A program made the position numbers and the translations under genes. Shown in pieces: positions 9,056 to 41,300 of a DNA stretch of 64,000 nucleotides. Origin of the DNA: Candidatus Poseidoniaceae archaeon. Its GTDB lineage: Archaea > Thermoplasmatota > Poseidoniia > Poseidoniales > Poseidoniaceae. How positions within the stretch are numbered: position 1 is the first letter of the stretch; the number at the start of each line of letters is the position of its first letter. A model generated the notes under the pieces. That model was not told the DNA's origin. It saw only the letters and a program-made list of their open reading frames with translations, and ran no database searches. The stretch is from the NCBI GenBank assembly GCA_949373075.1, contig CASIBX010000005.1:5873-69872 (forward strand), read 5' to 3'.

Positions 9056-10222
9056 ATGAGTGAAGATAAGTCACTGTTGAACTTGACCACCGCCCATCTC
9101 AATACCGGTCTAAGAGGAGTTCCTGTTGGCACCTGTAGAACGTCCTATGTCACTCCGGGAGAAGGGGTCCATTATTGCGGATATCCGATTGGTGAATTAG
9201 CCATGATGTCACCAGAAGACATTGTGTTTTTGCTATTCCACAAGGAACTTCCAACGCTCGAGGAATCAGTTGAGTTCAGAAAGAATCTACAATCCCGAGG
9301 GGACATCCCCGACGGTATTGAACAAGTTCTTGCTACATTACCTAAAAATGGCCACCCAATGGATTGGCTTTCTATCGGTATCCACACTTTAGGGATGTTA
9401 GGTGGAGTCGATGATTGGAGAGAAGATTCATTGAATCTGATAGCAAGAATGCCGAGACTAATGGGTCTTATTTTCCGATATCGTGAAGGGAGAGAGTCCA
9501 ATATTCCAGCAGATGACTTGTCCCTTCCACTAGTTGGTAGATTTACTAATACTCTAGACTTAGATGGTATCGATAAAGCCGTAATGAACAGAGTACTTTC
9601 GACATATCTTGTACTTCACATGGACCATGGAGGAGGCAACCTGTCTACCTTTGCAGGGAAAGCTGTTGCAAGCGGTCACGCTACAGTGTATTCATCGATG
9701 GCTGGAGCAATGAATGCTTTGTCTGGACCATTGCATGGCAGAGCAAACCAGTCCTGCTTTGAATTCGTTCAGCGAATTGGAACATCTGACCCTGCTGAAG
9801 TCGAACGCTTTGTTCGTGGAGAATTAGAATCAAAGAGACCTGTCTTTGGATTTGGACATGCTGTTCTAAGAACCGAAGACCCACGTGCATCTGCTCAGTT
9901 TGCACTTGGTGAAGAGATCTGTCCAGATGACGAATATTTCAGAATCATTAGAGTTCTAAGAGAGATTGCTCCAATGGTGCTTTCTGAAAATCCAAAAATC
10001 AGTAATCCTAATGCAAATGTCGACATCGCCAGTGGCACTCTTCTCAACTTCGTTGGGTTGCAAGATTCTGAGTACTACACTACATTCTTCGGATGGGCAA
10101 GAGTAGCAGGAATTGGTGCGCAAATTGTTGATGAAAGAACGGTTATGCGTGGAGGAAAAGGAATTCCAATCTACAGACCAAAGTACATTGCAGAAGAACA
10201 GACTTTGCGTCATCTTGAATGA
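9056..10222 (+). CDS. gltA: Citrate synthase
   Basis: Motifs LHMDHGGGNLST, GPLHGRANQ and the GFGHAVLRTEDPRA signature. The track ORF begins at a TTG at 8993. The in-frame ATG at 9056 (MSEDKSLL) gives 388 aa, a typical archaeal/bacterial length. Confidence 0.9.
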   Translation: MSEDKSLLNLTTAHLNTGLRGVPVGTCRTSYVTPGEGVHYCGYPIGELAMMSPEDIVFLLFHKELPTLEESVEFRKNLQSRGDIPDGIEQVLATLPKNGHPMDWLSIGIHTLGMLGGVDDWREDSLNLIARMPRLMGLIFRYREGRESNIPADDLSLPLVGRFTNTLDLDGIDKAVMNRVLSTYLVLHMDHGGGNLSTFAGKAVASGHATVYSSMAGAMNALSGPLHGRANQSCFEFVQRIGTSDPAEVERFVRGELESKRPVFGFGHAVLRTEDPRASAQFALGEEICPDDEYFRIIRVLREIAPMVLSENPKISNPNANVDIASGTLLNFVGLQDSEYYTTFFGWARVAGIGAQIVDERTVMRGGKGIPIYRPKYIAEEQTLRHLE

Positions 10223-11247
10223 AAAATTGGCCTGGTTGTTTTACCACAACCGCGATGACCAATCATTCTAACAGCACTCCATCCTAATTGTTCATCACTA
10301 ATTTCATGCCAAGGTGTCACATCTTCTGGATTGAGACCTTTCTCTAAATCCAACCATTGCCTATCTGTCAATGGCATTGTAGCCGGCCTCAACCAACGAC
10401 TGCTTCCACATGGTAATTTCAGATCAGGATCAGCAAAATCAGTGAGGATAGACAATCCAGCACTAAGTAAATCTCTTTCCAATTCAGGGTGACCAGGCCA
10501 TACGTAGACTGGGAAACCATCTCTTATTTTTGTCAAGCGTTTCAATTGTCTACCCTTGAGACCGACTGGTCTACCAAAATGTAAGAACCTCTTGATGCCC
10601 TCAAAATAATCTACTGCACAAGGCATCATTGGAGCGCCAGATTTCTTTTGCGAATGCAATAATCTCCTAAATGAATTAGTGATGAATTCAGGAGCTGCTC
10701 GGAGTCTCTTGCTATTATGTGAACCAGTTCTAGGAACGATTGGTAATAATCTAGACCACGGTCTTTTCGAACCAGATATCTTAGCAACTTCCGACATCTT
10801 GCGATGGAATGCATAGAATACAGCCGCTTGGTCATGTATTCCAGCCTCATCTACCATTTCAGTCGCCAATTCCATAACTCGAGCCAGTCGTTTAGTTGGA
10901 TCTTTAGTAATCTCAGGTAAACTACGTTTGATTTCGAGGCATGCCACTTTGGAATGCTCTTGCCAAGGCAGAAGCCAGTCTTTGTCTGACATTAATTTTT
11001 CAAAAGAGCAAAAACCAACTCCCTCTAAGTCTGCTAAATCCCATTCTTCAACATTTTTAGGACGCCCATCAAACATGTCGGGTGATATTGAAACTGTGTG
11101 GTCGTGGTGAACTACTAGTTGGTCGTCGGCTGTAAGGCGTAAGTCGAACTCGACACCGTCCATACGTTGCATAGCCTCAACCAAAGAAGCATGAGTATTC
11201 TCAGCAGGCTGACTCCACCCCATCGGTACGGCTTGGTATGATTTCAT
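10210..11247 (-). CDS. Glycerophosphodiester phosphodiesterase (GDPD) family protein, atypical
   Basis: QPAENTHASLVEAMQRMDGVEFDLRLTADDQLVVHHDHTV matches the GDPD PENT...E.D...HHD core. The N-terminal HRG motif is absent, and an IGHRGCG string sits at the extreme C-terminus. Confidence 0.65.
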   Translation of the reverse strand: MKSYQAVPMGWSQPAENTHASLVEAMQRMDGVEFDLRLTADDQLVVHHDHTVSISPDMFDGRPKNVEEWDLADLEGVGFCSFEKLMSDKDWLLPWQEHSKVACLEIKRSLPEITKDPTKRLARVMELATEMVDEAGIHDQAAVFYAFHRKMSEVAKISGSKRPWSRLLPIVPRTGSHNSKRLRAAPEFITNSFRRLLHSQKKSGAPMMPCAVDYFEGIKRFLHFGRPVGLKGRQLKRLTKIRDGFPVYVWPGHPELERDLLSAGLSILTDFADPDLKLPCGSSRWLRPATMPLTDRQWLDLEKGLNPEDVTPWHEISDEQLGWSAVRMIGHRGCGKTTRPIFHSR

Positions 11248-11314
11248 TATTGAATCATGTGCCGGTTAACTAATCCGGCCCAACCATCATAAGCAAACAT
11301 GCAGGTCATCACTT

Positions 11315-13081
11315 ATGGCAGAAGACCAACGCGTACGAGGATATTGTGCATATGATTGGGGAAAGAGCGCTTTTGAAACATCGGTTACAACTGCTGTTTT
11401 CCCTGCGTGGTTCGCCTATTTATTTGCTGAAGCGAATGGTATTTCCACCAAATTCTTGGGCTCAGAATGGACAGCAGATACAATGTTTTCAGCTGCAGTA
11501 ATGATTGGAGCACTGATTGTTGCAATATGTGCTCCGTCTTTGGGAGTTATTGCCGACCGTAGAATGATCAAGATGTGGTGGCTTAGGATACTGACGATTT
11601 TAGGTTCAGTATCTTGTATTCTGCTAGCATTATCCACACAATTACCTGTCTCTATGGGGTGGATTTGGGCTTTGATAATGTTCATGGTTGCGAATGTTGG
11701 TCTGAATGGAGCAGGAGTATTCTATAATGCACTCTTACCACATATGGGCGAGAATTCTGAAATGGATTCCATCTCAAACAAGGCCTTTGCAGCAGGTTAC
11801 CTCGGCGGTGGTCTTCTCCTAGTAGTCCACCTAATAATGGTGCTAAACTTAGATGGCGACTGGGTTATTCCATTCGTTATGGCATCGTCCGGACTGTGGT
11901 GGCTTGGATTCGCTCAAATGACATTCAGAATGATACCTGAACCCCATATCGAAAATGAAATGGAATCGATGGGGATTGTTGATTCAACAAAGATGGCCCT
12001 TGGTGAAGTTAAATCCACATTAGGCGACATCAAGAGTTTCAAGACGCTATTCATCTACATGATAGCATATTTCTGTTTCATCGATGGAATAAATTCGGTT
12101 ACAGCACTTGCTGGAGTGTTTGGAATCGTGGTATTGGGCCTGACCACTACCGGACTAATCCTAACAATCTTAATCATTCAATTCGTAGCAGCACCTGCCG
12201 CTATTGGATTCACAAAGTTAGCAGAGAAATGGGGAACTAAGAGTGCTTTACAATTTTCACTCGTTTGCTGGTGCTTCGTAATTGTCGGAGCCCTATCATT
12301 CGCACCACTAGAACTTGAGAACCATGACGAATACGATGTGCAGTACACCTGGGATGAAGATGCAAGCATATACATTGCAGAAGCAAGAGAAGGTGTAAAC
12401 AACATTGCAGCACTTCCAGATGATGATGAACAGAAATGGGCATTAGAACATGAAGACATTCTGCCAGTCGAGCAGAATAATGATGTGAAGAGACAGGGTT
12501 ATTCGGTCAAATGGGCATTTGATGGTGATGATGAGGCGGTCCCGATAGAAGTAGTATTGACTGCAGAAAACCTCGAAGCTCTGAAGTCTACTATGGATGA
12601 ATCAAGATTCTCATATAGCGTAGAAGGGGGCGAATTTGACGGCCAAACTGGATTGGGTGTAAACCACCCGTCTAGCCTAGGTGATGGAACATTAGATGTC
12701 ATTCCAGAAACTGTTCGCTCAATGGTATGGGCGCCACTCGGAATGACTGTATTCTTCCAATTCTTACTTCTCGGAGTATTTGCAGGAGCGCTACTTGGCG
12801 GATCTCAAGGCCTAGCACGCTCGATGTTTGGACAGATGGTTCCTGAAACTCGTTCTGCAGAATTCTTTGGATTCTTTGGATTCTTTGGTAAGGTTGCAGC
12901 TTTACTCGGGCCGCTAATTTACATGCTAATGACACTCTGGTTTGATTCTAGAGTTGGTATTTTCGCACTATCAATACTTATTATTGCAGGAGCGATTATA
13001 CTGCGCAAGGTCGATGTTGAAGATGGAATCGCAGTTGCCAAAGCAGAGGACGAAAGAAACCGTTCAGCCTCTACTGAGTGA
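11315..13081 (+). CDS. MFS transporter, UMF1/Atg22-like family, with a ~140-aa acidic soluble insertion
   Basis: The N-terminus YCAYDWGKSAFETSVTTAVFPAWF is typical of the UMF1 family, and there are multiple TM helices. An acidic non-membrane segment (about 12300-12725) sits between the two helix bundles. Confidence 0.7.
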   Translation: MAEDQRVRGYCAYDWGKSAFETSVTTAVFPAWFAYLFAEANGISTKFLGSEWTADTMFSAAVMIGALIVAICAPSLGVIADRRMIKMWWLRILTILGSVSCILLALSTQLPVSMGWIWALIMFMVANVGLNGAGVFYNALLPHMGENSEMDSISNKAFAAGYLGGGLLLVVHLIMVLNLDGDWVIPFVMASSGLWWLGFAQMTFRMIPEPHIENEMESMGIVDSTKMALGEVKSTLGDIKSFKTLFIYMIAYFCFIDGINSVTALAGVFGIVVLGLTTTGLILTILIIQFVAAPAAIGFTKLAEKWGTKSALQFSLVCWCFVIVGALSFAPLELENHDEYDVQYTWDEDASIYIAEAREGVNNIAALPDDDEQKWALEHEDILPVEQNNDVKRQGYSVKWAFDGDDEAVPIEVVLTAENLEALKSTMDESRFSYSVEGGEFDGQTGLGVNHPSSLGDGTLDVIPETVRSMVWAPLGMTVFFQFLLLGVFAGALLGGSQGLARSMFGQMVPETRSAEFFGFFGFFGKVAALLGPLIYMLMTLWFDSRVGIFALSILIIAGAIILRKVDVEDGIAVAKAEDERNRSASTE

Positions 13082-13117
13082 AAACGCTCATAGCCACTGG
13101 CCATGGGAGGGTGAGAT

Positions 13118-14548
13118 ATGAGTCCGTATTGGGTGATGATGGGATTAATCCTTGTCCTCACACCAATTATCTGTTGGTTGTTCACTTTAGGGAGAGAGCA
13201 TACACGCACCCCAATGGGAAAAGCATTCGAAGTCATACATCAGAAAAGGTACTATCTCCACGCTCTAGGATATCTTTTCATCATCAAATGGAAGGCGACC
13301 ACAGATGACCTGAATGAGCCTATCAAGCAACGTACAGGCAACTGGACTGAATGGATATATTCACTTGAAGGCGACACTACCCTTTGGGTACAACAGACAT
13401 TTGAGAATGCTTGGTTGACTGAGTTTTTGAATTTCCATTATTTGTTTATTTACTTATTTTTGATATACATTACTACTGTTTATTTTGCCTATGTTGGCGA
13501 GAGAGATATGACAGACAAAGTAACTCTCAATTATTTGTTGATATATGCGATTGCAGTTCCATATTATCTGTTTTTCAATGTCGAAGTCACATCATCTTGG
13601 ATTCCAGGAATGAAGGCGTTGCTCTATCATGATGGATGGTATACCGCATTCTATGCCACCCATGACCCATTGGACAATGCCGTACCTTCACTTCACGTCG
13701 CAATTCCATTTGGAATAATTCTCCTTAATTGGCTACATTGTAAAGAGAAGGGTATCAAGATGCGTGAATGGACACATTGGCCTTACCACCTATTCATTGT
13801 ATTCAACACCATACTATTCGTATTCACTATTGCATACCTCGGAATACATTGGCTAATCGATATCCCATTGGGAATGATAGTGGGAGGGATCGGGGCATTA
13901 TTCATTCATCACCTCCAACCAAGAATGCGTAATGACCACGGTAAAATGTTTGAAGGAGTTACCAAAAAGAAAGTTATCAATCATACGTTCTGGGAAGGTG
14001 CTGCAACTCTGATAATACTCTTCCTAGTTCTTTCAGCGGTTTCATATCAAGAAAATAATGTCGATGATAGAGTCTCGATGAGATTAGGTGGAGGGGATTC
14101 CACCTATGAGATTCTAACACCACTATCTTATGGAGAAGAAGTTACCACCACAATTACTAATTTAGATGATTCGTTAACGCTCCAATTCACAATTATTTGG
14201 GTTGACGACTCTGTGTCGGCAATGAACCAAGGCGTGATTGACTGGTCTGTTTTAGAAAAGAACCACACCATCTATGAAGTTGAACCTGGAGGTGAGACTT
14301 CGGTTACAGTTACAGATGAAAACAAATGGCATCTAGTGATATTACATAATGATGCAAGCGATACTAATGATGTAATCGAGGTTCGAATTATCAATGATTA
14401 TGGCGATGACCAAATGACCAAAGCTATCGCATTATCACTTCCATCCATGTGGATGACTGGTTTCGTTTTGCATCGTTTGAAGAGACTAAAGGTGGCTGGA
14501 AGGTCATGGATTGACTCGACCCCATCCCACATGTGGGAGGAAGAGTAG
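13118..14548 (+). CDS. PAP2-superfamily-like integral membrane protein with C-terminal extracytoplasmic beta-rich domain
   Basis: Polytopic N-terminal half with NAVPSLHVAIPF and HWLIDIPLG, resembling the PAP2_3/inositol-phosphotransferase type SxH...H..D motifs. A GGAGGGTGA SD-like element lies upstream of the ATG. The family assignment is tentative. Confidence 0.45.
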   Translation: MSPYWVMMGLILVLTPIICWLFTLGREHTRTPMGKAFEVIHQKRYYLHALGYLFIIKWKATTDDLNEPIKQRTGNWTEWIYSLEGDTTLWVQQTFENAWLTEFLNFHYLFIYLFLIYITTVYFAYVGERDMTDKVTLNYLLIYAIAVPYYLFFNVEVTSSWIPGMKALLYHDGWYTAFYATHDPLDNAVPSLHVAIPFGIILLNWLHCKEKGIKMREWTHWPYHLFIVFNTILFVFTIAYLGIHWLIDIPLGMIVGGIGALFIHHLQPRMRNDHGKMFEGVTKKKVINHTFWEGAATLIILFLVLSAVSYQENNVDDRVSMRLGGGDSTYEILTPLSYGEEVTTTITNLDDSLTLQFTIIWVDDSVSAMNQGVIDWSVLEKNHTIYEVEPGGETSVTVTDENKWHLVILHNDASDTNDVIEVRIINDYGDDQMTKAIALSLPSMWMTGFVLHRLKRLKVAGRSWIDSTPSHMWEEE

Positions 14549-21750: not shown

Positions 21751-22080
21751 ATGGAGACAATAATGACATCCAACACTGAGACGATTCCCGGATTCACGAT
21801 TAACCAATCTTTGGGGATTGTAACCGGTTCAACCGTACGTGCCAAGCACATAGGGAAAGATATCCTCGCGGGTCTAAAAAACATCGTAGGTGGAGAACTA
21901 AAAGCATATACTGAGTTGCTTATGGAAGCCCGTACTGAAGCGCTAGGACGAATGATGATGGATGCTTCACAGCGTGGTGCAAATGCTGTCGTTAATGTCA
22001 GATTCGCCACGAGCAGTGTAGCAGGCGGAGCTGCAGAATTATTTGCATATGGAACCGGCGTAGTTGTCACACAAGGGTGA
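21751..22080 (+). CDS. YbjQ/UPF0145 family protein
   Basis: Full-length family pattern: GIVTGSTVRAKHIGKDILAGLKNIVGGELKAYTELLMEARTEALGRMMMDASQRGANAVVNVRF...AYGTGVV. Confidence 0.8.
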   Translation: METIMTSNTETIPGFTINQSLGIVTGSTVRAKHIGKDILAGLKNIVGGELKAYTELLMEARTEALGRMMMDASQRGANAVVNVRFATSSVAGGAAELFAYGTGVVVTQG

Positions 22081-22606
22081 TCTCTTGACAACTGGTGAGA
22101 TTGGTGAATTGATTGGTCTTGTGGCCATCGCTGTAACTGTATTTTTGTTCATAGCATTCCCTACTCTGGCGTTTATTTATTCAATGATTTTTGCAAGATT
22201 TCATCAAGACAAATACCAGAAGCAACTTTTAACTCGTGAAAAACTTGTTATGCAGCAGTTAGGAAAAGACAACCTGAGCACACTTTCTAAGCCAGTACCT
22301 GAGCGTAAAATCAATCAAACTGGATTAGTTATGTCCAACATTACGGTTTCACCATCTTGGTGGCAATTATTCCTAGGTTCTATTCGGTCTATTTTCGGAG
22401 GAAATATCGTCTCTTTCGATAAAGTTCTGGCTTACGGACGTAATGAAGTAATGCAGAGGCTGCGTGAACAGGCTATTGGCGATGGCTGGGAAGAAGTTGT
22501 CAATGTAAGAGTTGAGACATCTATGGTCATGAACAAAGTCAGGGGTGGCAAACAAAACAAGATGGGCACCCTCGAGTTCCTTGCATATGGAACCGGAATA
22601 CGCTGA
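22064..22606 (+). CDS. Membrane-anchored YbjQ/UPF0145-like protein
   Basis: An N-terminal helix, then a divergent YbjQ domain (GGNIVSFDKVLAYGRNEVMQRLREQAIGDGWEEVVNVRVETS...LAYGTGI). The start is uncertain, with in-frame TTG candidates at 22064 and 22085. Confidence 0.6.
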   Translation: MSHKGDLLTTGEIGELIGLVAIAVTVFLFIAFPTLAFIYSMIFARFHQDKYQKQLLTREKLVMQQLGKDNLSTLSKPVPERKINQTGLVMSNITVSPSWWQLFLGSIRSIFGGNIVSFDKVLAYGRNEVMQRLREQAIGDGWEEVVNVRVETSMVMNKVRGGKQNKMGTLEFLAYGTGIR

Positions 22607-24138: not shown

Positions 24139-27093
24139 ATGGTTCTCTCGAGAATCATGGGTATCAAGCCAATTAACTTGACAATGGTAATCGCCGGCTT
24201 CATAATGGTCACTTTGAACTTAGCAGTTTTGGGACCGATGGCGACAAGTGCCGTACCAGATGCGGTACGTGATGCGGTTGCAACAAAAGTGAAAGACGAC
24301 ATCTGTAATGATGTAATGTGCAGAGATGTCAATGAGGATTGGACAGAATCTACTAGTCAGAGAGATTTCTATGCTTGGCACATAACCAATGTTGATGATG
24401 TAATAGCGAATTACACCGAACCAGAATATGAGATGGTTGGGCCTGTAACTTATGATGTCACTCTGAAAAGAGTAGTAGATAATTACGATATCAAGAACGG
24501 ATTGCTAACTTACAAACAAACTACTTCCTATGCATGTGCAGAAAACACTGAAGTTCCTTGTTCTACTGAAATTTCACAACTTAATATTGCCTTCACCCCA
24601 CAAGTTGTAGGAGCTACAGGAACTGCTATTGATGCAGTGATGGGAATCACGAAAGTTGGATTCGCAAAAGGGGTAATCGACATTCATTTCAAGCAGGTTT
24701 CAGCTGCACATAATGTTTCAGACTACAATTCATACAATGTTGAAACTCTACAACAGGTAGAAGGAAACTACCCGGGAGCAGTAGTAGATACCGACTTAGG
24801 AAATACTGCAGAGTCATATTTCCTCGATGGTATGTTTGATCTGGTGGATGAAGCATACGGAGATGCTTTCCTCGATGATGACACAAAAACATATCTCGGT
24901 GAAGGCGGAGTAATGCCACAATGGGCAGAAGGTACTTGGAACGACAACGGAAATGGAATTCTCGATAAAGATGAACAATGGATTTACGATGGAAATGGCC
25001 AATACTTTAGCGGCGATGAGAACAACAATTCGATTGAAGATTATTATGGCGAGATTGACAGTTTTGAGCCTCTTCTAGATTTAGAATATGCATTTAATCA
25101 TGCAATTGGACCAGATGGTGAGAATATTTCGCTCTACAACTACATGGGACCTCTAGTTTATGCTGCAATGGGAGAGCCAGAGAGTATTGAAGAAATTCAA
25201 GCAGACCCTGAGAATTCAGTTACACTTGAGCGTGCTGAACTTTGGAACTTCACCCACCCTAGTGACCTAAACATTACACTCGCACGTGATTGGACTCTCT
25301 ATGGTGGAATGGGTAAGTTGATGCTCGACAATGGGGCTGGCGATGACGATTATCTAACCAATGATGATGAAGATTCTATCGACTTTTCACAGCGGTTTGA
25401 ATGGCTAATGGATTTAGAAATTGACAATGAGGTTGCTAGAACATTATTGACTCTTGGAGATGGAACTGATGAACCATTAGGGATTCTAGCGGTTAGTGAA
25501 TCAGGAACATCATTTGGCCTAGCGGAATTCCTTGACATGTCCCGAGATGAAGCCAAAGCAACTTATGGAATAAACAATAATCAACACACTCAACTGAAAC
25601 AATTTTGTGGAGATTGGGTTGATGATGTATCCGCCCTACCTCTAATCTTAGTCGGCGGTGAAGGTTACATCACTGCCTCAGAGTTTGTTAACCAGACATT
25701 CGGCTCGATAAACCCAATCGATGACACATACATGGAATATTCATTGAATGCTGGCGGAATGTGGGGTAGCGGTATACTTGGCTTCCCAGAAGGCGATATC
25801 GTTGACTTAACTCAAGAGGAAAGTGCGAACATGTTGTATGGTGAATATGGGTTGACTACTGCAGAAGGAGCAGGAATTTTCCTTTATGGAGAACTTAGTG
25901 GAAAGAGCATCCCAATCAACTTCACCACTGGAGAAAGTGCAGATGCAATTGAATGGAATAACAAAACTGTGGCAGACATATATGGTATTGACGAAAACGC
26001 AGCGGGTGCTGCAAGACTATTGATGATGGAAGTCATTTTCAAGAACTTCGTACCAGACTTCCTAATCGATTCATTTGGAACTTCCCGCTACCTTACTCAA
26101 CCAATGAATAATTGGATTTTGGGCTGGCATGACCCAGTTAATGCGTACTTAGAGAGCGACGACTCTGAGGACATGACTGTTGGATGGACTAGTCTTGAAG
26201 CCAATGAGACATTCTATGGCTCTGACCAATATGTCGAGGGAGGGATCTCGACAGGAGAGCCAGGTACAATCACAATTTGTACCGGGGAAACAGACCAGTG
26301 CGATAAGGGTGAAACCGTAAGAGTAGGAGATAGCGATTACATTAGTTGGAAATCCCTTGAAAAAGAGATTGCCACATACGGATTAATCACGGCTGAAAAA
26401 CAGCAAGACACGATTGGCGGATTCATTACAGGAGATGGCGATTTAATCGACCTATCAGGATATGGTACTGTTGATGTTGTTTGTGATAAGAAAGGAACCC
26501 TGAAAGGAATACCTGTCGATGTATGTTCAGCATCGATGGACCCTCTTACAAGTCCAATCCAAGCTAAGTTGGTCAACAAGGGAGATTTACTTGATGCAAC
26601 ACCAGGAGCACTTCCTGTATACTTCGGTAGCGTTGTTGAATTACAGGCTGAACAACTCAGTGGAGTGGTACTCGCCGGTAATTCTGAATCTACATTCTGG
26701 CTAGACACCAGACCTATTTGGGAGCAACAAACACAACCTACAGTGGCAGACATGCAACAAGTTTTCGTTATCAAATCAGAAGCGATGGTAGATGATGAAA
26801 CCGCTGAGGCATTGGAGTCATCTATTGTTACCAATCAGGACTCTTTGACCTATTGGACTAATTTTGATACAGACGGATCTGCATTCTACATTGACCAAGT
26901 TACAGCGGTATTCTACGTATTAGGATTGATATTCTTACTCGCAGGGGTAACTATGATTTTCATGTCAAGAGATAAAAATGAAACTACAGAATCGAAATGG
27001 GATGAGGATTTGACACAGCCTGAGACGATGACACCGGAACCTGAGATTGAGGAAGCCAATACAGAGGATTCTGCAGAAGAAATTAACGAATAG
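24139..27093 (+). CDS. Large acidic two-pass membrane protein with CD36/LIMP-2/SR-B-like ectodomain motifs
   Basis: Hydrophobic helices at both termini (about 24184-24243 and about 26905-26965), which is the CD36 topology. [32 protein letters not shown] (24364-24459) compares with [13 protein letters not shown]...[24 protein letters not shown] (26113-26151) compares with LLWGYKDEIL. The CDS is solid but the family call is tentative. Confidence 0.45.
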   Translation: [984 protein letters not shown]

Positions 27094-27155: not shown

Positions 27156-28076
27156 ATGCAGCCAGCGGCCGTAACAATACCTGCGCAATCAGCAATGCCA
27201 CCAAATGAGCCACAATTCAAAGATAAAGAAGCGAATTCAATCAATGGATTCGTGGGTTTGCTAATCCATTTAGGACTTAGCGTTTTCAATTTAGCACTTT
27301 TAGCAACTGGCCCTGGAGCATTTCTACTAATCATCACCGGGCCAATCTGGCTGGTAATGTGGAATTCTTATGTAATCGTCAATCCAAATGAAGCAGCTGT
27401 TTTACAATTTTTTGGGAAATACAAAGCCACACTCAAGACTGAAGGTTTCAGGTTTTTCTTGAATCCATTGTACCAAAAAACGAAGATGTCATTCAAGATT
27501 AACAACTTTGAATCCAGTAAGCTAAAAGTGAACGATGTCAATGCCAACCCAATCGACATTGCAGCAGTAGTTGTATGGCGGGTTTATGATGCGGCGGAGG
27601 CTATGTTCGAAGTAGAGAATTATGGACACTATGTCCAAATTCAAAGTGAAGCAGCACTTCGTGAAATGGCTACAAAGCACCCATACGATGCTATCGAAGA
27701 GAAGGATATCGGAGGAATCACACTCTCAAGTCACCAAGATGTAATCGCTAAGGAACTCCAAAAGTCAGTTGAGGCTCGCCTGGCACGTGCTGGTATCCAA
27801 GTTCTTGAAGCAAGAATCAGTTACCTCGCATATTCTACTGAAATCGCACAGGCAATGCTACGCCGTCAACAAGCAAGTGCTGTTGTAGCAGCACGACACG
27901 AGATCGTTGCTGGTGCAGTTGGAATGGTCGAATTGGCCCTTAATCAACTGAGTAGCAAAGGTATTATTGATCTCGATGAAGACAAGAAAGCAACAATGGT
28001 CAGTAACCTACTAGTTGTCCTTTGTTCTGAATCCGACACAACACCTGTAGTAAACACAGGAACTCTATACCAGTGA
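27156..28076 (+). CDS. SPFH/band-7 (stomatin/prohibitin-like) domain protein
   Basis: An N-terminal helix pair, then the SPFH pattern: VIVNPNEAAVLQFFGKY...NPIDIAAVVVWRV...EAALREM...GIQVLEARISYLAYSTEIAQAMLRRQQA. Confidence 0.8.
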   Translation: MQPAAVTIPAQSAMPPNEPQFKDKEANSINGFVGLLIHLGLSVFNLALLATGPGAFLLIITGPIWLVMWNSYVIVNPNEAAVLQFFGKYKATLKTEGFRFFLNPLYQKTKMSFKINNFESSKLKVNDVNANPIDIAAVVVWRVYDAAEAMFEVENYGHYVQIQSEAALREMATKHPYDAIEEKDIGGITLSSHQDVIAKELQKSVEARLARAGIQVLEARISYLAYSTEIAQAMLRRQQASAVVAARHEIVAGAVGMVELALNQLSSKGIIDLDEDKKATMVSNLLVVLCSESDTTPVVNTGTLYQ

Positions 28077-28894
28077 GGTGGATGATTATGCACACAGCAG
28101 CAAAAGTACTTCTCATCATTGGAACGATTGCAACGGTAATAGGAATTGGAGGCTTTGCAATAGGTGCTGGCCAAGTCGATGATATAGGGGACAGTTGGAA
28201 TACGTTTGAATTTGAAGATGCAACAAATGGTACAATCACAATTGAAGACACAGACGGAATGGGCGACATCGGATTGACATTTTGGGTCAAAGGTGTATAT
28301 GAAGACAAAGATGGAGACGGAACCTGGGATGTCTGCCAAAACACCAATGTTACTATCACAGAAAGTCCTGATGTGAACAATTCTTGGGAATGGGCTGAAA
28401 TTTTGGATGGCAATTTCTACAACGAAGTTCAAGCAAACCAAGGATGTGATTCTAACGATAAAAACATCAATAATGATCGAGAAGCTAAGGGTCTAGCCAA
28501 AATTGGTCGTGCATGCTGGGGTTGTTATGCAGGAAACGTTTCATTTGAATCCAATCAAAGTGTCTGGGTAACCTATGAGGAAAAAGTTGGTGAAGAATTG
28601 GGTGAGGACGTAGGAATACTAATCCTAGGGTTCATTGGCGGTTTCGGCGGTGTTTGCTGTGGTGTTTTGTTCTTGATAATTGGTGGAATCATGGCATTAA
28701 CCATGAAAGATAACAAGCAGGAAATGATGTATGCCCCACCTGCTGATAACCAAATGATGATGGTGAATAATCCTACTACCACCCACATGTCTAGTCCGCA
28801 ATTTGGAGAGTCAGACCAACCTCAAATGAATGCTCCAGCTACAACACATATGTCTCAACCCTCATTTGAGAAACCGCCACAAGGTGGCCTTTAA
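28073..28894 (+). CDS. Hypothetical membrane protein with acidic ectodomain and Q/M/P-rich tail
   Basis: GTG at 28073 overlaps the SPFH stop (GTGA). In-frame ATGs at 28082 and 28088 follow a GAGGTG SD. The protein has N- and C-proximal helices. The tail carries the duplicated motif TTHMSSPQFGE / TTHMSQPSFEK. Confidence 0.55.
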   Translation: MRWMIMHTAAKVLLIIGTIATVIGIGGFAIGAGQVDDIGDSWNTFEFEDATNGTITIEDTDGMGDIGLTFWVKGVYEDKDGDGTWDVCQNTNVTITESPDVNNSWEWAEILDGNFYNEVQANQGCDSNDKNINNDREAKGLAKIGRACWGCYAGNVSFESNQSVWVTYEEKVGEELGEDVGILILGFIGGFGGVCCGVLFLIIGGIMALTMKDNKQEMMYAPPADNQMMMVNNPTTTHMSSPQFGESDQPQMNAPATTHMSQPSFEKPPQGGL

Positions 28895-30277: not shown

Positions 30278-33073
30278 TTATTCACTCTCACTTACAGGTT
30301 GATTGACCATAACAGATGCCCCTGATTCAGTTGCTAACTTTCTAGCGTCTTGCTTTAGGAAAGGCGTGTAAAGAGCAGGCAATAAGAACAGGCTTGAGAC
30401 GAGTGCCAGAACTATTGCAACAACGAAAACTTGTCCAAACAATTGCAGAGGTACAAGAGATGAGAAGTTCAGAACAGAGAATCCACCTGCAGTAGTAATA
30501 GCAGCACCAAACATAGCACGCCCTGTTGTAGCGGCAGATTTTGTAGTCCATTCTGAAGGGTTAGCATTTGGAGCATGCTCAACCTCTTCTTCCATCCTTG
30601 TAGTGAAATGTACCGCATAATCAACACCCAAACCAAGTGTCAAAGCACCTATCGTAACCGTCTGTGAATTGAGTTGATATCCAGTTAGGCCCATTATTCC
30701 ATAAACCCAAACAACAACTACCATCAAAGGAATCCAAGTCACAAATCCTCTTGCTGCACCACGTACGAAATTCTTCTGACGCGCAGTGTTTATTCCAACA
30801 AGCATCACCAAAATAACTCCTGCAACTGTTGCAGTAGAAATTACAGCAGAATCCGCAACGTCTGCGGTTATTTGGGCAGTAATTAGTGAGCGTCCAGAGA
30901 TTTGAATCGAATAATCACCAGCCATATATCCTTCTAGTTGTGATAAAGCATCACTTAATTCGTCTTCAAAGATTACTGTTGCTCCCCAATCAAGAGTTGC
31001 CGCTTGGAAAGAAATTACAGTTTGTGTAGCATCAGAATTGAGGTTTCCAGAAGATATATTGCGTCCAGCATCACTCAATAACCAGGTTTTTAGCATGTCC
31101 CATGAAGCCTCTGAACCATCTAACTGAATCAGCAAATTATCGAGTTCATCATTTGATGAACGTGATTCTTCTAATATGCCCCAAATACCAATTGGTAAAC
31201 CATTTATTTCATCCGTACCAGATAACTCTTCGATGATAAGAGCATAGATTAATCTCCCTTCAGGTGAGATAATATCTCCATCTAAAACGACATACAGAGG
31301 AGAAGGACTGCTCTGGAATTCATCTGCAATCATCAAGAAATCGGCAACCACCGGAACTGAATCATCAAAGTTGTCTCTAGTATCAAAACCGACTTCCAAC
31401 TGTTGGAAACCGATGAACATAGGAACCGAAATTATCACTGTAACAATAACGACAATTACTGGTGTTTCTGTTAGAGAACCTATCCATTTTGAAATCGGAC
31501 CGATTTCATTTTTCCCAGATTTAGCCAGTGGTAATTTCTTGGGTGGAATAATCATCATCAATGCGGGGAGGGCAGTAATACTCAGTAGATAGATGAAGAA
31601 CAATCCAATTGCAATTACTGTTCCAAAGGAGACTAAGAATTGCTGAGATGAAAATCGGAAGGAGAGGAATCCTACCATGTCGGTAAAGATAGCAACCATA
31701 AGTGCAGCAGAAGTTAAAATTGTACCTCTACGAATTGCTAACTTCCTTGCTTCTAAGGAGAAATCACGCAGTGTTTCCCTTCCCTGGGGGTCATTCTTCT
31801 CTTGGTCTTGCAACTCTTCTCTAATTCTGGCAACTACGTGTAAGCCGTAGTCGACACCAATTGCAAGAAGTAAAATTGGAATAGAATTCATCGCCGCATT
31901 AAATACCATATTTGCGCCTAATAAAGTAAGCAAACCAGCCATACCATATGTCGCCAAAATCGCGAATACAGTCAGTATCAGTACATTCGCAGTATCTCTT
32001 TTACTTCGGAATTTAGTCCATAGAATGAAACCAAGAAGTAAAAGACAAATCGAGTTAAGAATCCCTAATTCTTTGCCAAGATTCGCATTTTGCCCAGTAG
32101 ATAATTGTGAAAACGAAAACACAGACACTCCAGAATCACCCGTCTCTTCAGCTGCTTGTTTGGACAAATCGTCTGCCCACAATGTGACTTTCTCTTGAAC
32201 ATCTCCTATTACTTCGACTCCGTGTTCAGCAGGATCGGTTACAACAACGAAGGTAGTCAAGACTGGTCCATCAGAGGACCAAGGGTCATCGGAATCATCT
32301 GCTGGAAGGTTCGATACCATCATCGAACGATAATCAATAGATTGTAACCCAGTCAGCAAACCTAACTTCCCAGAGATTGGCCCAGTGACTGCCGAGATAT
32401 CAGTTGCATTGGGGCCTTGATTCAAAGCATTAAGTTGACCAATCATTATCCCTAGTGATTGAGATAAGTTGTCACCTGAATCTAATCTATTTAGCCAAAT
32501 CGCTGGGTCTTCTGGCTCCCATGAACGTAATTCATCTGCGCTAACAACGCCAGGAGAAGGAATCGAGTTACCGGTTGTAAAGAGAACATCCAAATTGGCT
32601 TGCAAGGTTGAATTATTAGAATTTGCAACATTAGAAATGGCTGAATTCATTTCCAAAATCCAGCCCGAAGCTGTGTCTTGATCTTGCAGATTATGCCACT
32701 GTATTGCAGAACTAGCCATACCATTGTTCGCCTGTACTCCAAATAGCGGATATTGGTACTGATTCAAATCAGGGTTTTCAATAAGGATTGCTTCAAGGAT
32801 TGCCAATTGTTTCCATGTTGAATCGATGTACAAATCGCCAGACTCTATCTCATCAATGAAACGAATAAAGTCGATTGACGCTTGGTATTCATCCTCAACG
32901 TCATTTAGCAGTCTAACAGTTTCATTGTCAGGGAAAAAGGCGTCTTCGCTATTGTCAAAATTAATGAACATTGCATTTGGAGTCAGCGCCAGTAAGAACA
33001 CAACTATAATCGCGAGAGCGGTTTTAGGACGTCCCACACTGAAATTGGTCATCTCATTGAAAATATTCTTCAT
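30278..33073 (-). CDS. RND-superfamily exporter (MMPL/COG1033-like, two SSD-type 6-TM bundles)
   Basis: 931 aa. Its layout is N-terminal helix, large periplasmic-type domain, TM bundle, second soluble domain, second TM bundle. Motifs are GVDYGLHVVARIREE and GLGVDYAVHFTTRMEEE. Confidence 0.75.
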   Translation of the reverse strand: MKNIFNEMTNFSVGRPKTALAIIVVFLLALTPNAMFINFDNSEDAFFPDNETVRLLNDVEDEYQASIDFIRFIDEIESGDLYIDSTWKQLAILEAILIENPDLNQYQYPLFGVQANNGMASSAIQWHNLQDQDTASGWILEMNSAISNVANSNNSTLQANLDVLFTTGNSIPSPGVVSADELRSWEPEDPAIWLNRLDSGDNLSQSLGIMIGQLNALNQGPNATDISAVTGPISGKLGLLTGLQSIDYRSMMVSNLPADDSDDPWSSDGPVLTTFVVVTDPAEHGVEVIGDVQEKVTLWADDLSKQAAEETGDSGVSVFSFSQLSTGQNANLGKELGILNSICLLLLGFILWTKFRSKRDTANVLILTVFAILATYGMAGLLTLLGANMVFNAAMNSIPILLLAIGVDYGLHVVARIREELQDQEKNDPQGRETLRDFSLEARKLAIRRGTILTSAALMVAIFTDMVGFLSFRFSSQQFLVSFGTVIAIGLFFIYLLSITALPALMMIIPPKKLPLAKSGKNEIGPISKWIGSLTETPVIVVIVTVIISVPMFIGFQQLEVGFDTRDNFDDSVPVVADFLMIADEFQSSPSPLYVVLDGDIISPEGRLIYALIIEELSGTDEINGLPIGIWGILEESRSSNDELDNLLIQLDGSEASWDMLKTWLLSDAGRNISSGNLNSDATQTVISFQAATLDWGATVIFEDELSDALSQLEGYMAGDYSIQISGRSLITAQITADVADSAVISTATVAGVILVMLVGINTARQKNFVRGAARGFVTWIPLMVVVVWVYGIMGLTGYQLNSQTVTIGALTLGLGVDYAVHFTTRMEEEVEHAPNANPSEWTTKSAATTGRAMFGAAITTAGGFSVLNFSSLVPLQLFGQVFVVAIVLALVSSLFLLPALYTPFLKQDARKLATESGASVMVNQPVSESE

Positions 33074-35251: not shown

Positions 35252-35303
35252 AATAGGACGAACTTGAACCTTCGCTTTGCTAGAGTTCAGACCTCATTTC
35301 TCC

Positions 35304-35322
35304 GGCCACCCTACGGGTGGCC
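35304..35322. promoter_or_regulatory. GC-rich perfect hairpin in the divergent rfcS / giant-gene intergenic region
   Basis: GGCCACCC-tac-GGGTGGCC is an 8-bp stem (7 GC pairs) with a 3-nt loop. It lies 48 nt upstream of the ATG at 35370 and just before an AAACTATA TATA-like element at 35333-35340. Confidence 0.25.
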
Positions 35323-35369
35323 AGCCGAAAGGAAACTATACCACCTCTGTCAATGGTTACCCGAGCCCA

Positions 35370-38300
35370 ATGTCAACGAACACCCGCGACCGCCGACGAA
35401 TCGCAAGTTCACTCTTGCTCGCTATGATGTTTTTATTTGCTGATTTGGCACTTCCACAAGCAGTGCCCGACTGGACAAATGAGGTACTAGAAGATGAAAC
35501 CACCGTATTTCAAACTGTATCCACATTTAGTCCATCGAAGGATACAGCTATCGATTCGTCAAATCCTATGTCGAACTATGGCTCTGATGAAACTGTAAAT
35601 TTGGGTTCAACATTCACAGGAGAATCAAAAATCTTGATTTCATTCAACAATACTGTTCCGGGAACTGACTTAGTTACAGATGCTGTATTGAAATTAACCT
35701 GTGGAGTCGACCCCTTAGATTTAGGAGCCATAAATATTTACAACTCACGCCTCCTAAAATCTTGGGATGAAGGAAATTCGACATGGGAAGACGCTGCCAA
35801 TGGAGTTTCATGGGAATTACCAGGGGCGGAAGGAACTTCTGATTATGACTCTTGGGAACCACCATTCTACGGATATGCAAACAATACCTTTTCAATTAAC
35901 GTAACCGCTGTTGTTCAGGACGCTGTAGCAAACTCACGCAGTACAATCGAACTTATCCTTGCAGCAACGGGAACACAGTATGAATGCCAGATGTCTGAGT
36001 CTCCAAACAGTGGTGGCCTACCGTATCTAGAGATATCACACCAAACTGGAAGCCATACTAACGGAGGCTCTCTAACACCTAACTTTGTAGAGGATGGAGC
36101 TGCTTTGATGGATGACAGTCAATTCGTTCTTAGTGCGGCGGCTAATCCTGAATTGTCATGGGAAGGGCTAACTGGAAGTCATGCACAAATCCAACTTTCA
36201 ATGTCAGAAAATTTCTTGTCAAGTGACGACGACAATTGGTATTACAATACCAAAGATAACTCTTCTATATTCACACTTAATTCGGGTGATGGAGAAATGA
36301 CTGTACCTACGGGAGATGAACTTTCGAACTCTTCGACTATGCATTACAGAATGCGTTCAATAGACAGTAACGAAACCATTGGCTCTTGGGTCACAGGATA
36401 TTTCCACCTACCTGGCCATAGTATCACGATGAGCGGCAATTATGGTACGCTATCCGTTGGGTTTGATGATCTAGGGTTAACTGAAAATACAATCGAAGAT
36501 ACCTTCATCGATTCAAATGACAAGAACACCAATCTGGGCAGTGAAGAGAACTTTACTGTTGGTTCATCATCGAGTTCAGACCAGTATGGGTTAATGCGCC
36601 TGAACCTAGATGACCTCGGATTGCATCATAATTCCTCTATTATTTCGGCTAACATAGTGATGACAAGAGACTCTTTCAGCAGTTCAGCAGATGTTAGTCT
36701 ACATGTGATGGACGGTGAAGATTGGACTGAAGATAGCGTTACTTGGCGAAAGTATGATGGTACCAACAACTGGAATGATGGCGGAAGAGTTCCATCGATG
36801 TCTGTAGGTAATTTCACTGGTTCACAATCCAGTTCAACTATTGAAGTTGACATCGCAGTGGCCTTACAACATTGGATCGATGAGAATAATGACGCTATAC
36901 AAGCGGGGTTGTCGCCTGAAAGTTCACTTGATTTGCTCATGGTAGCCTCTACCTTTGGAATCGAAGAGTTGAGCACACAATCTGTGAAAATTTGTGCAAC
37001 AGAATCATTAACTTGCAATCAACCAAAAATCGAGATAACCTATGATTGGGATAGTAACGGACCTCCTGAGATCCCAACACATGTCGCTCCACTTGACGGG
37101 CATGGCGTGTGGGATTTAATCGGAGACAACCTAACTGGAGATACCAATCCAACACTTAGTTGGAATGGTTCGATCGTTTGGAGTGGCGACATGATCATGC
37201 AGGTTGCAAAAGACCCAGAGTACCGCGAAATCATACATTCGTTTAACACAGGAGATTCCTCAACATCGTTTGCTTCATCAGATGGAAATTGGACTGTCAG
37301 CAGTACAGATACACTTCAAGATGGTGTGATGTACCATTGGAGATTAGCACAACAAGACTCCACTACTAACCATCACTCTTGGTGGGAAACATCTTCATTC
37401 CTTGTATCTGGATTAGAATCAGAGTACATTCAGGATGATGAACATCGCTTACGATTATCTCATGGTAACGCAACCACTGCAGGGGATTCTCCTGACTGTG
37501 GCGACACATACATCGACAGTGGAACACCAAACAGCAACTACAACGGCGAAGATGATATGCAAGTATCATACAACACATTCCCATCTGAAACCTCGATTAT
37601 CCTCGGTTGTGATTTGACAAGTCATCTACTTCCATCTGGCTATGCTGTGCAAACTGCAACACTGAAAATGCGACTATCTGACTACCCTATTGGAAGTCCA
37701 AAGATTGGAGCATGGGAAAGTCGACAGCACAATTGGACTGAAGAAGGAGCAACTTGGCAATCTTATGACGGAAATTCTGCAAACTCTTGGGGCACCTCGG
37801 GTGCTAAAGGCTGGGAGCGTGCTGGATTATTGGATTCAATAACACTTGGCGGTACTTATTCTGCAGGAGATTGGGTAGAGTTCGATATTACCCTCGCTGT
37901 GCAAAATGCAATGCGAGAAGATAGAGCAGTAGATTTGGTTCTGGGTATTGTTGGAGTAGGTAGTGGCGTTGATAGAGACGCTTTGTTCTATCCAAATAGT
38001 GCCTCCTCTTCGAACCGTCCTGAAATATCTTTCATCTATGTACCTGGTTCAGATGCTTTACCTTCAGAACCGGTACCACAATCACCTCTGAATGGATCCT
38101 GGTCAGTCGAAAACGGAATTAATCCAGCGCCTGAACAATCCCCTCAATTATCATGGAATTTCTCATCGACAGCTGTTACAATAGGTGGATGGTCAATCGA
38201 ATTAGACACATCTCCTAATTTTGACTCGGCCGACTTATTGATGGCTACCAGTTGGACGGACTCTGGATTTGACATTACGAACCAAACATACGACATTGCT

Positions 38301-41300
38301 AGCCCACTTGATACAGGTGAAACTTGGCATTGGAGGGTAAGAGCTACCAGTTCAACCAATCAAATTGGAAACTGGTCGAATTCGTTCCACTTTTTACTCC
38401 CAGACATTACGACTTGGAGTATCGATTCAAATTCAGCGGCAGTTGAATTGCACCACAGAGAAGCAATGCCTTCCCTGAACATACCTAATTTCATCGACTC
38501 TTGGGTTGCAGATTCAGGAATCGGCTCCACTGCAGACCAATCTTCATCCTCTTCGATGAAGGTAGGCACAGATAGTAACGGAGCAAATGCCACAGGGTTA
38601 CTAAAGATACCTTTGACAGAGTTACCTAATCCACAAAACGCACACATTGCGAATGCTGTACTGAACTTGTATGCCGAATTCGGTTCAGATACTGGCAACT
38701 CAGTATCGATTCATCCAGCACTTGTTGCTTGGAATACAAGTGCTAATGGCACGACCTATGATGGAGTGAATAACTGGTCCTCACCAGGTGCCATGGGTAC
38801 TGGCGACAGAGGATTGTTAGTTGATGTTCAAGATAGTGGGTCTGCTACTTGGATGAGCTTTGATGTAACTGAATTAGTTCAAGCGGCCTTTGCAAATGGA
38901 GATTCACACGTATCTTTGTTAGTTGTAGGATCTGTGGATGAGGGACAGACAACGTTCACCACTACCGAAGGAACCAGTAGCGATAGGCCATGGATAAACA
39001 TGACTTGGGCCACAGGAAATGCCTCATCTCCTGAAAGCGCAGGTAGCAATTCAAACCCAACGCCCAATCAAATAATCTGGGACACATCGACACACGCATT
39101 ACTTCCTGGAAGCACCCCGAGTCTTACATGGACCCATTCTAATCCATCGAATGTAGATGATTGGAGAGTATTCATCTGGAATGATTATTCAGATGAAAGA
39201 GCAGGTTGGACTGTATATGATAGCCGAGATTCTTCTAATGGATGGGATATTGCCAACCTAACTTGGACTTCGCCTTCGAGTCTTTCAGCCGGAGATTCAT
39301 ACGAATGGTTTGTCCAACCGATTACCAATGACATCCTTGGTTCTCGTGGCACTGACACTATATTCCACATACCAGCAAGTACTGGTGCATCCATCAATTC
39401 CACAGATGCTTACATCACTTTACAAGAAGGCCAAATTGTAGAGGCATTAAATTATCCAGCCATATTCATGGATACTTATCTTGATTCAGGTAATGCAAAT
39501 TCCGCCTATGAAGGGGGAACTGAACTGATAATCGGACGTTCAAACTATACTACTGCACAGAACCATTACACAGAGTCGATGATAATGGTGGATTGGTCGA
39601 CACTACCTATTCCAAGTTCTCACGAATTCTTTGATTCGGAATTGACACTGCACAAGGTTAGCGGTGGAGATATAAATCAAGAATCAGTTAGAATCGCAGT
39701 TTGTGAAGTACAAGATACCTGGAATCAAAGTGCTACTATGAATGGACCAACAGGAGCTAATTCGACTTGGACCAATCCTAAATGCGACATTCCGTTTGAA
39801 ATAAAAACTATGGATTATCAAGATAACACCATCGATTTAGACATCACATATGCTGTCCAACATGCTCATGCTGCAGGTTTAGACAAAGTGAATTTATTGT
39901 TCAAAATCGTTAGTGATACCGATGAAGAGTGGCACTTCGCAAGCAGTGACTATACCGATGATGAAACAAAGCGTCCTGAAGTCAAACTTGAATGGAGAAC
40001 TGGTACTCAATGGCTGCCATCACCTGCAATGAGCCTGCTACCTGCCGATGGTTCAACGATTTGGAATGAAACTTCATCTAGGCCTCGTGGTGCTGATGAT
40101 GTAACCATGAATTGGACGGGTGTTGAATCTAATGAAACACGCTGGGTTATGCAATCCTCAACTTCTGCTCATTTCACAAATGAAAATGAGACTTGGTTGA
40201 TGGACCTTACAGATAATAATACGTTCAACGGAACATGGGACTATTCCAGCCTCGCTTACACAACCAGCGATAATATCGAATGGGGAGATTATTGGATATA
40301 CTGGAGAGTTAGGGCTGAGCAAGACCACCGCTTAGGAACATGGTCCAGTGTCAACTCATTCCGAGTGCCAGGAATTCTTGGAAGTGACGACGGCGCTGGA
40401 AACAATACTATCGTACTGTATGATGGTTCTGTATTCAACCAAACCTCATCTCTGCCAGGCGTTCCAGATGCAACAATCGATTCCAGTCGTTCCAATAATT
40501 CTCTAGGCAATAATGGCGAATTAGACTTGGGGATCTCTGCAGGCGGCTCAGGAGAATCTATGATATTACTAACATTTGATTTGTCAGAATTACCATTCCC
40601 TTCTGCTATGACTCCTACAAACGTTCTGCTATCACTATACAGGTATGATGTCAATGGAACATCATCTCAAACTGTAAGTGTTCATGCCTGTGATACATTC
40701 AATGAAAGGAGTGTAACTTGGAATACAGCACCTTCGTGTTCGAGTACTGAAGTCACTCGCACTACATTGCTAATATTCCCTCCAGATGGTTGGCAGGAAT
40801 GGGACCTTACATCATTGGCTCAATCTAATATTGCAAATGGAAATAACACTCTGTCCATTATGCTAAAATCAGTTGGAACCCCGACTTCAGGGCACTCATT
40901 CTATGATAATTCATACAATGATTCGATTAAGCCTAAATTGATTTTAGAATATGTTGACAACGTTGACGGAGTTATACCTCCTTCTCAACCAGTACTAAAC
41001 AATCCAATCGATGGAGCTATTCTGTATAACACAACTAATTGGGTATTAGAATCTCTTGACAAACCTGAATTAACTTGGAATTCTGTAACAAATGCAACAG
41101 GATATGTCGTGACTATTGCAAGCACAGGTGGCCAATTAAAGTACAAATCTTGGGAAGATAGTGAGATTAACGGAACTACATTCACTTTCAGCCAGGACTT
41201 GGTAGAAGGTAGCGTTTACAGTTGGTGGGTACAAGCCATAAATGGATCTATACCTGGACCTTCTTCAAGTCGAAGGTCGTTCGCAATTGGTTCTCCTGTC

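Follow-up and report, generated by a model that had tools for sequence, protein, structure and literature searches.

A CD36-like protein with a large apical head domain encoded by marine Poseidoniales archaea

The CD36-like gene and its product

The stretch of DNA analyzed here (hereafter the window) comprises 64,000 nucleotides of the contig CASIBX010000005.1 (positions 5,873 to 69,872 of the forward strand) from a Candidatus Poseidoniaceae archaeon (assembly GCA_949373075.1). It contains a complete gene for a protein of 984 residues, in which the first-pass annotation, made from the letters and their translations alone, had recognized a relative of the eukaryotic family of scavenger receptors class B (SR-B) that includes CD36, LIMP-2 and SR-B1. 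We find that the gene encodes a true homolog of this family, because the evidence from sequence profiles and from the predicted fold agrees and is collinear along the domain (positions of all features are collected in Table 1).

The reading frame is uninterrupted and begins with an ATG codon at 24139. In most orthologs the start corresponds to M7 (24157), which would give a protein of 978 residues, a trivial difference. Kyte-Doolittle windows of 19 residues exceed 1.6 only within residues ~6-39 and ~915-945, and AlphaFold2 places long terminal helices at residues 11-36 and 916-942, in good agreement with the initial claim of one transmembrane helix at each terminus and a large ectodomain between them. 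The ectodomain enclosed by these two hydrophobic helices spans ~880 residues, and basic residues lie beside their cytoplasmic sides, as judged from the sequence. The protein is acidic throughout its length (isoelectric point 4.05, 17.7% Asp+Glu), and 26 invariant alignment columns persist among relatives down to 27% identity. No model in NCBIfam matches it. A scan with bacterial-type promoter and terminator models, which are not suited to archaea, returned hits at the background level only. An antisense open reading frame (ORF; 26337-26834) is nested entirely inside the gene, on the opposite strand.

Sequence similarity to the CD36 family

The Pfam profile of the CD36 family (PF01130) matches the window protein with an E-value of 1.4e-9 and a score of 37.4 bits, well above the curated gathering cut-off of 26.5. 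This match, together with the search described next, takes the first of the two family motifs that had been noticed by eye (24361-24530, residues 75-131) beyond chance; its coordinates and those of the second motif (26107-26151, residues 657-671) were both given correctly. A profile built from 28 orthologs and compared with 177,635 sequences from the PDB retrieved only LIMP-2/CD36 chains (E 0.014-0.08), with a second, collinear stretch near the C-terminus that did not reach significance. Profiles are needed for this similarity to be seen, as a phmmer search of the PDB with the single sequence of the window protein returned nothing relevant. Ten divergent members of the archaeal family all exceed the PF01130 threshold (29.3-70.5 bits, best E 1.3e-19), and in one relative of only 730 residues, P0138, the match covers profile positions 2-263.

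Profile-profile comparisons suggest that the similarity extends to the C-terminal part of the protein. A broader profile, including relatives at 27-35% identity, was aligned to LIMP-2 by hhalign with a probability of 93.7% (E 1.9e-7), and deletion of the central 450 residues gave a probability of 96.4% (E 1.2e-9) against a profile of human LIMP-2, CD36 and SR-B1. The LIMP-2 stretches of the human sequences used in these comparisons agree with the alignments from the PDB search. The hhalign score, which is 63 for the N-terminal part alone, rises to 78 once the C-terminal part is joined to it and the insertion removed, and in that arrangement the second motif aligns to the LIMP-2 segment ELLWGYKDEILSLI and the alignment reaches through ELLWGYKDE. 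The C-terminal part alone, examined for the M6 and M17 regions as defined by Boohar et al. 2023, yields three weak matches that are correctly ordered, with E-values of 0.0045, 0.0065 and, for the KGIP motif at the end, 0.25. When the C-terminal halves alone were compared with Pfam, collinear sub-threshold matches to PF01130 appeared in four of nine relatives (E 6e-5 to 0.02), covering profile positions 152-243 and 338-443. The profile of the actinobacterial DUF3068/PorA family (PF11271, gathering score 29.5 bits) finds no match in the window protein and stays below its threshold in two relatives, with 16.4 and 17.0 bits.

Predicted fold

Models were predicted with AlphaFold2 from alignments of archaeal sequences only, and that of the window protein was made without templates. 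The latter has a mean predicted local distance difference test score (pLDDT) of 74 and a predicted template modeling score (pTM) of 0.61. In it, the first transmembrane helix is followed by strands 70-82, 97-117, 122-133 and 144-148, a helix of 55 residues (152-206), a mostly helical region up to the helix 619-646, further strands within residues 651-883, a helix at 886-905 and the second transmembrane helix. A Foldseek search of the PDB with this model returned 13 matches with E <= 0.001, and all 13 are structures of LIMP-2 or CD36 (4F7B, 4Q4B, 4Q4F, 5LGD, 4TW0, 9FJF, 5UPH), with E-values from 7.5e-7 to 5.5e-4, a probability of 1.0 and ~310 of ~390 columns aligned. The next matches are to LmcA of Mycobacterium smegmatis (E 0.011-0.039), and everything else has E > 0.28. 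The second model, that of the 730-residue P0138, is of better quality (pLDDT 79, pTM 0.73) and retrieves the same 13 LIMP-2/CD36 structures at the top, with E-values from 1.1e-10 to 5.8e-6 and target-normalized TM-scores of 0.52-0.66, again directly followed by LmcA (E 1.2e-3 to 4.5e-3). Since the top matches of both models are LIMP-2 and CD36, among them the very structures that had been named for comparison (4F7B and 5LGD), the family is predicted to have the CD36 fold, an asymmetric antiparallel β-barrel, across the whole domain. The proposal of a CD36 homolog in an archaeon is therefore borne out by both the Pfam profile and the predicted fold.

The apical insertion

The ectodomain is about twice the eukaryotic size, as had been stated at the outset; the first-pass annotation attributed this to acidic insertions, but scattered insertions are not the cause. 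A single uninterrupted block of ~450 residues (~190-640) accounts for the added length, and ~320 of these residues form a conserved, confidently modeled helical domain. Its neighbors in the sequence are the helix after the N-terminal strands, on one side, and the WGW motif, on the other; in the eukaryotic proteins the apical helix bundle occupies this place. In the AlphaFold2 model, the long helices 152-206 and 619-646 flank the block at the position of that bundle. Eukaryotic SR-Bs, too, vary mainly by lineage-specific expansion of the apex, which is their ligand-sensing region (PMC10715195).

The first part of the insertion, residues 191-320, is an acidic segment whose length varies from 9 to 130 residues across the family (43% gaps in the alignment), and its pLDDT is 78-94 at residues 191-240 and below 50 at 271-273 and 282-307. 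DxDxDG-type loops resembling calcium-binding loops are seen at 24922-25038 (residues ~262-300), with WDDDGDGILEEDE in close relatives; they are found only in the clade of the window protein and are modeled with pLDDT below 50. The second part, residues 321-640, is nearly as conserved as the barrel (fraction of the majority residue 0.46-0.53, compared with 0.55-0.59), is rich in invariant Gly, Pro and Trp and is modeled with pLDDT mostly between 80 and 95. The 730-residue short form lacks residues ~191-440 and retains 441-640. The conserved head domain has no match in Pfam and, by Foldseek with both models, none among the structures in the PDB.

Internal duplication as the source of the insertion was ruled out, as hhalign comparisons of the insert with the core and with itself were blank. 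One stretch of 13 residues in the head bears a faint likeness to the WGY motif (E 0.11).

Distribution of the family

Matches to the family comprise more than 200 clusters at 90% identity; nearly all of them carry a precomputed PF01130 tag, and those with names are assigned to Poseidoniales or Poseidoniaceae. When 1.84 billion representative proteins were searched with a profile, 258 matches emerged, the best 150 of which are members of the same family or their fragments, with no eukaryotic CD36 among those best 150. A scan of 185,579 species genomes seeded with the motifs located the gene in at least 114 species-representative genomes, including those of Thalassarchaeaceae, and the informative titles among these genomes all read Poseidoniales, Poseidoniaceae or Poseidonia. 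The divergent members bear NCBI names from Thalassarchaeaceae, and therefore the family is present in both families of Poseidoniales, Poseidoniaceae and Thalassarchaeaceae. A third clade, that of the short form of 730 residues, was found on marine contigs of 1.86 Mb with archaeal genes. No relatives were found among the viral contigs of IMG/VR. One metagenome-assembled genome, JAACDL01, contains two distinct CD36-like genes (L011 and L056), whose products are 63% and 42% identical to the window protein; these genes are either true paralogs or the product of a mixed bin.

The family is not wholly new, as automated annotation flags these proteins (NCBI labels MCH2637922.1 as "CD36 family protein [Candidatus Thalassarchaeum sp.]") and fold relatives from Actinobacteria have been published. 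A prokaryotic CD36-like fold was described for LmcA/PgfA of the DUF3068 family (PMC8972800, PMC9678360). This published fold qualifies the view in the first-pass annotation that CD36 is essentially a eukaryotic family. A broad evolutionary survey of the CD36 family covered eukaryotes only (PMC10715195), and a search of the literature found no paper tying CD36 to archaea, Poseidoniales or Marine Group II. The proteins analyzed here are the first archaeal clade of the CD36 family to be examined; their ectodomain is doubled in size and includes a head domain of a new kind. Ancient vertical descent and inter-domain transfer, in one direction or the other, are both possible origins.

Genomic neighborhood

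In the clade of the window protein the CD36-like gene is preceded by a pyruvate kinase gene and surrounded by several linked genes (Table 1). The order PheRS, YbjQ, pyruvate kinase, CD36-like protein, SPFH protein, MMPL protein is restricted to relatives with at least ~50% identity. The last of these encodes a transporter of the resistance-nodulation-division (RND) superfamily with sub-threshold matches to the NCBIfam models of HAE3, HpnN, BstA and MmpL3; RND proteins of the HAE3/MMPL type are a family of lipid exporters. The linkage of this gene to the CD36-like gene recalls the mycobacterial pairing of PgfA with MmpL3.

Other clades have other neighbors. Two further contexts in Poseidoniaceae consist of housekeeping genes, such as those for a tRNA methyltransferase, a PurM-like protein, MCM, GatE, fibrillarin/Nop and Fpg. 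In the four divergent loci that we call Thalassarchaeaceae-type (two of the four proteins have relatives named Thalassarchaeaceae by NCBI), three have a divergently oriented gene for a PlsC-type acyltransferase next to the CD36-like gene, and all four have a regulator of the HTH_10 family convergently downstream. In the short-form clade (L080, 10001-15311; L081) the CD36-like gene overlaps the start of a gene for the ATPase of an ATP-binding cassette (ABC) transporter by 8 bases, and a gene for an FtsX permease of 808 residues follows, which suggests a three-gene transport operon. The clade-specific partners are all related to lipids or membranes, yet the direction of transport does not follow from them.

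Table 1. Features of the CD36-like gene and its linked genes (window coordinates, unless a locus is named)
Feature	Position	Strand	Basis or remark
Complete CD36-like gene, 984 residues and stop, ATG start	24139..27093	+	Uninterrupted ORF
N-terminal transmembrane helix (signal anchor), residues ~11-36, preceded by R5 and K10	24169..24246	+	Hydropathy, AlphaFold2 helix
N-terminal part of predicted CD36 β-barrel, residues 68-162, includes GPVTY	24340..24624	+	PF01130 profile positions 43-134; AlphaFold2 strands 70-82, 97-117, 122-133, 144-148
Variable acidic segment of apex insertion, residues 191-320	24709..25098	+	AlphaFold2 model, family alignment
Conserved, mostly helical apex domain, residues 321-640	25099..26058	+	AlphaFold2 model, family alignment
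C-terminal half of predicted CD36 barrel, residues 641-915, includes second motif (26107-26151) and last strand and helix	26059..26883	+	Sub-threshold collinear PF01130 matches, hhalign, length of Foldseek alignment
C-terminal transmembrane helix, residues ~916-942	26884..26964	+	Hydropathy, AlphaFold2
Short acidic C-terminal tail, little conserved, presumed cytoplasmic	26965..27090	+	Hydropathy, AlphaFold2, family alignment
Tandem YbjQ genes (PF01906), between a hypothetical gene and pyruvate kinase	21751-22606	+	Kept in 18 related loci
SPFH/Band-7 gene	27156-28076	+	Linked to the CD36-like gene in 18 related loci, window's clade only
Membrane-protein gene overlapping the SPFH gene	28073-28894	+	Linked in 14 related loci, window's clade only
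HAE3/MMPL-type RND transporter gene	30278..33073	-	3.2 kb downstream; linked in 14 related loci, window's clade only
PlsC-type acyltransferase gene, locus L082	5387-6871	-	PF01553
PlsC-type acyltransferase gene, locus L084	5283-6965	-	PF01553
PlsC-type acyltransferase gene, locus L079	1-783	-	PF01553

Elsewhere in the window, a giant ORF of 3048 residues (35277-44423, forward strand) with five matches to the carbohydrate-binding module CBM96 is followed by an ORF of 856 residues (44474-47044) with a weak match to a bacterial Ig-like domain; both probably encode large surface glycan-binding proteins. An amino-acid permease fused to a C-terminal pair of EF-hands is encoded at 47052-48692 on the reverse strand, and such a fusion of a permease with a calcium-binding domain is unusual for an archaeon. 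A cluster related to lipids and phosphoesters (10210-14548) comprises genes for a GDPD-like phosphodiesterase (reverse strand), an ATG22-like transporter of the major facilitator superfamily and a PAP2-family phosphatase (both on the forward strand).

Proposed function and alternatives

Few archaea of the surface ocean are as abundant as those of Marine Group II, and to our knowledge no lipid or fatty-acid uptake system has been described for them. We propose that the CD36-like protein provides a lipid-transfer tunnel at the cell surface, on balance probably for the uptake of exogenous fatty acids or lipids. The protein is anchored in the cytoplasmic membrane via one helix at each end and exposes its ~880-residue ectodomain on the cell surface, with the predicted CD36 asymmetric β-barrel as the core and a lineage-specific helical head of ~450 residues apparently in place of the small eukaryotic apical helix bundle. 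By analogy with CD36, SR-B1 and LIMP-2, the barrel would house a hydrophobic tunnel, and this tunnel may carry lipids such as fatty acids between the outer leaflet of the membrane and a ligand bound to the head. In CD36, as summarized in PMC8972800, palmitate is held in the central cavity. Uptake appears to be the likeliest direction in view of the ecology of the hosts, which are heterotrophs, because all genera of Poseidoniales encode fatty-acid degradation (PMC6461757).

Several observations weigh against this proposal. The PF01130 match of the window protein is limited to residues 68-162 (profile positions 43-134 of 463, ~20% of the profile), and the target-normalized TM-score of its model is only 0.38-0.44. 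No neighbor is conserved family-wide, and some loci are surrounded by housekeeping genes. Finally, the families of the lineage-specific RND and FtsX-type ABC partners are known chiefly for export, and transport may therefore run outward.

If so, the same fold would serve an extracytoplasmic lipid chaperone, to which an RND (HAE3/MMPL) or FtsX-type ABC transporter would hand lipids, glycolipids or lipid-anchored molecules and which would deliver them to the cell envelope. We consider this the main alternative, though a rather unlikely one. We know of no envelope lipid of Poseidoniales that would need such a carrier, the RND gene is found at a distance of 3 kb, on the other strand, and is not linked outside one clade, and the sequences are far nearer to eukaryotic CD36 (up to 70 bits with PF01130) than to DUF3068 (16-17 bits with PF11271). 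On the other hand, the mycobacterial PgfA/LmcA acts in this manner with MmpL3: the fold of PgfA resembles that of CD36, and the protein binds trehalose monomycolate and was co-precipitated with MmpL3 (PMC9678360, PMC8972800). LmcA is also what Foldseek ranks right behind the CD36 family for both models, the HAE3/MMPL gene is linked in 14 loci of the window's clade, and the short-form gene overlaps the operon of the ABC ATPase and the FtsX permease.

Eukaryotic members of the family also bind proteins, thrombospondin in the case of CD36 and glucocerebrosidase in that of LIMP-2. The archaeal protein might likewise be a surface receptor or adhesin, whose head would bind particles, algal surfaces or proteins and whose barrel would be a mere stalk, with lipid transport not the main role. 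About half of the ectodomain belongs to the head, which is conserved almost as well as the barrel, the hypervariable acidic segment contains the calcium-binding-like loops, and the eukaryotic SR-B apex senses ligands and expands in a lineage-specific manner (PMC10715195). Nevertheless, we regard this role as improbable, as the best-conserved part of the protein is the barrel (majority fraction 0.59 in its C-terminal core) and the clade-specific neighbors are related to lipids rather than to adhesion. That the likeness to CD36 is due to chance or convergence, or that a eukaryotic contaminant entered an archaeal bin, is effectively refuted: identity to LIMP-2/CD36 is just 9-13% in structural alignments and the single-sequence search of the PDB was blank, but independent profile and fold evidence agree collinearly over the whole domain, and contamination is excluded because the gene lies amid archaeal housekeeping genes (PheRS alpha, pyruvate kinase, RFC, TatC) with conserved synteny, on contigs of up to 1.5 Mb.

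A lipid-transfer tunnel directed toward uptake is thus the function we favor, and it makes this conserved surface protein a concrete candidate for the acquisition of fatty acids and lipids by Marine Group II. With this order-wide archaeal branch and the actinobacterial fold relatives LmcA/PgfA, the history of the lipid-tunnel fold before the eukaryotes becomes open to direct tests. As a tentative scenario, which we would not call likely, an old, order-wide prokaryotic branch of CD36, which either survives from the lineage that gave rise to the eukaryotic family or stems from a very ancient transfer between domains, may have become the fatty-acid and lipid uptake device of Poseidoniales, equipped with a new docking head. 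The head domain of ~320 residues, for which no structural relative was found in the PDB, could define a new module of ligand recognition.

Comparison with known systems

The archaeal family shares with the eukaryotic CD36/SR-B proteins (CD36, SR-B1, LIMP-2/SCARB2; PF01130) the hairpin topology with two terminal transmembrane helices, the asymmetric antiparallel β-barrel of the ectodomain (predicted in the archaeal case), a final strand and helix ahead of the second transmembrane helix, and the collinear motifs FY.F.[IV]TN and GP.TY, with W/LLWG[WY].DP and KG[IL]P, further along, probably shared as well. Even the expansion of the archaeal ectodomain occurs at the apex, where the eukaryotic lineages vary too. 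The two groups differ in the host, which is an archaeon, in the size of the ectodomain (~880 residues, compared with ~400 in eukaryotes) and in the apex, where three helices in eukaryotes stand against a helical domain of ~450 residues with no known relative. Identity between them is only ~10-20%, and the cysteines of the archaeal family are conserved solely within Poseidoniaceae.

The other known system is the DUF3068/PorA family, reported as restricted to Actinobacteria and represented by LmcA/PgfA of M. smegmatis (PDB 7N3V/7SHW), whose members are likewise prokaryotic, membrane-anchored and extracytoplasmic and have an elongated CD36-like β-barrel. The crystal structure of LmcA contains two enclosed cavities (PMC8972800). 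The archaeal proteins match it much more weakly than they match CD36 (Foldseek E 1e-3 to 4e-2, PF11271 below threshold), and LmcA has neither an apical bundle nor a large head like that of the archaeal family. LmcA/PgfA is a proposed lipid carrier that works with a transporter of the MMPL family, and it is a gene of the MMPL/HAE3 type that is linked to the archaeal CD36-like gene in one clade.

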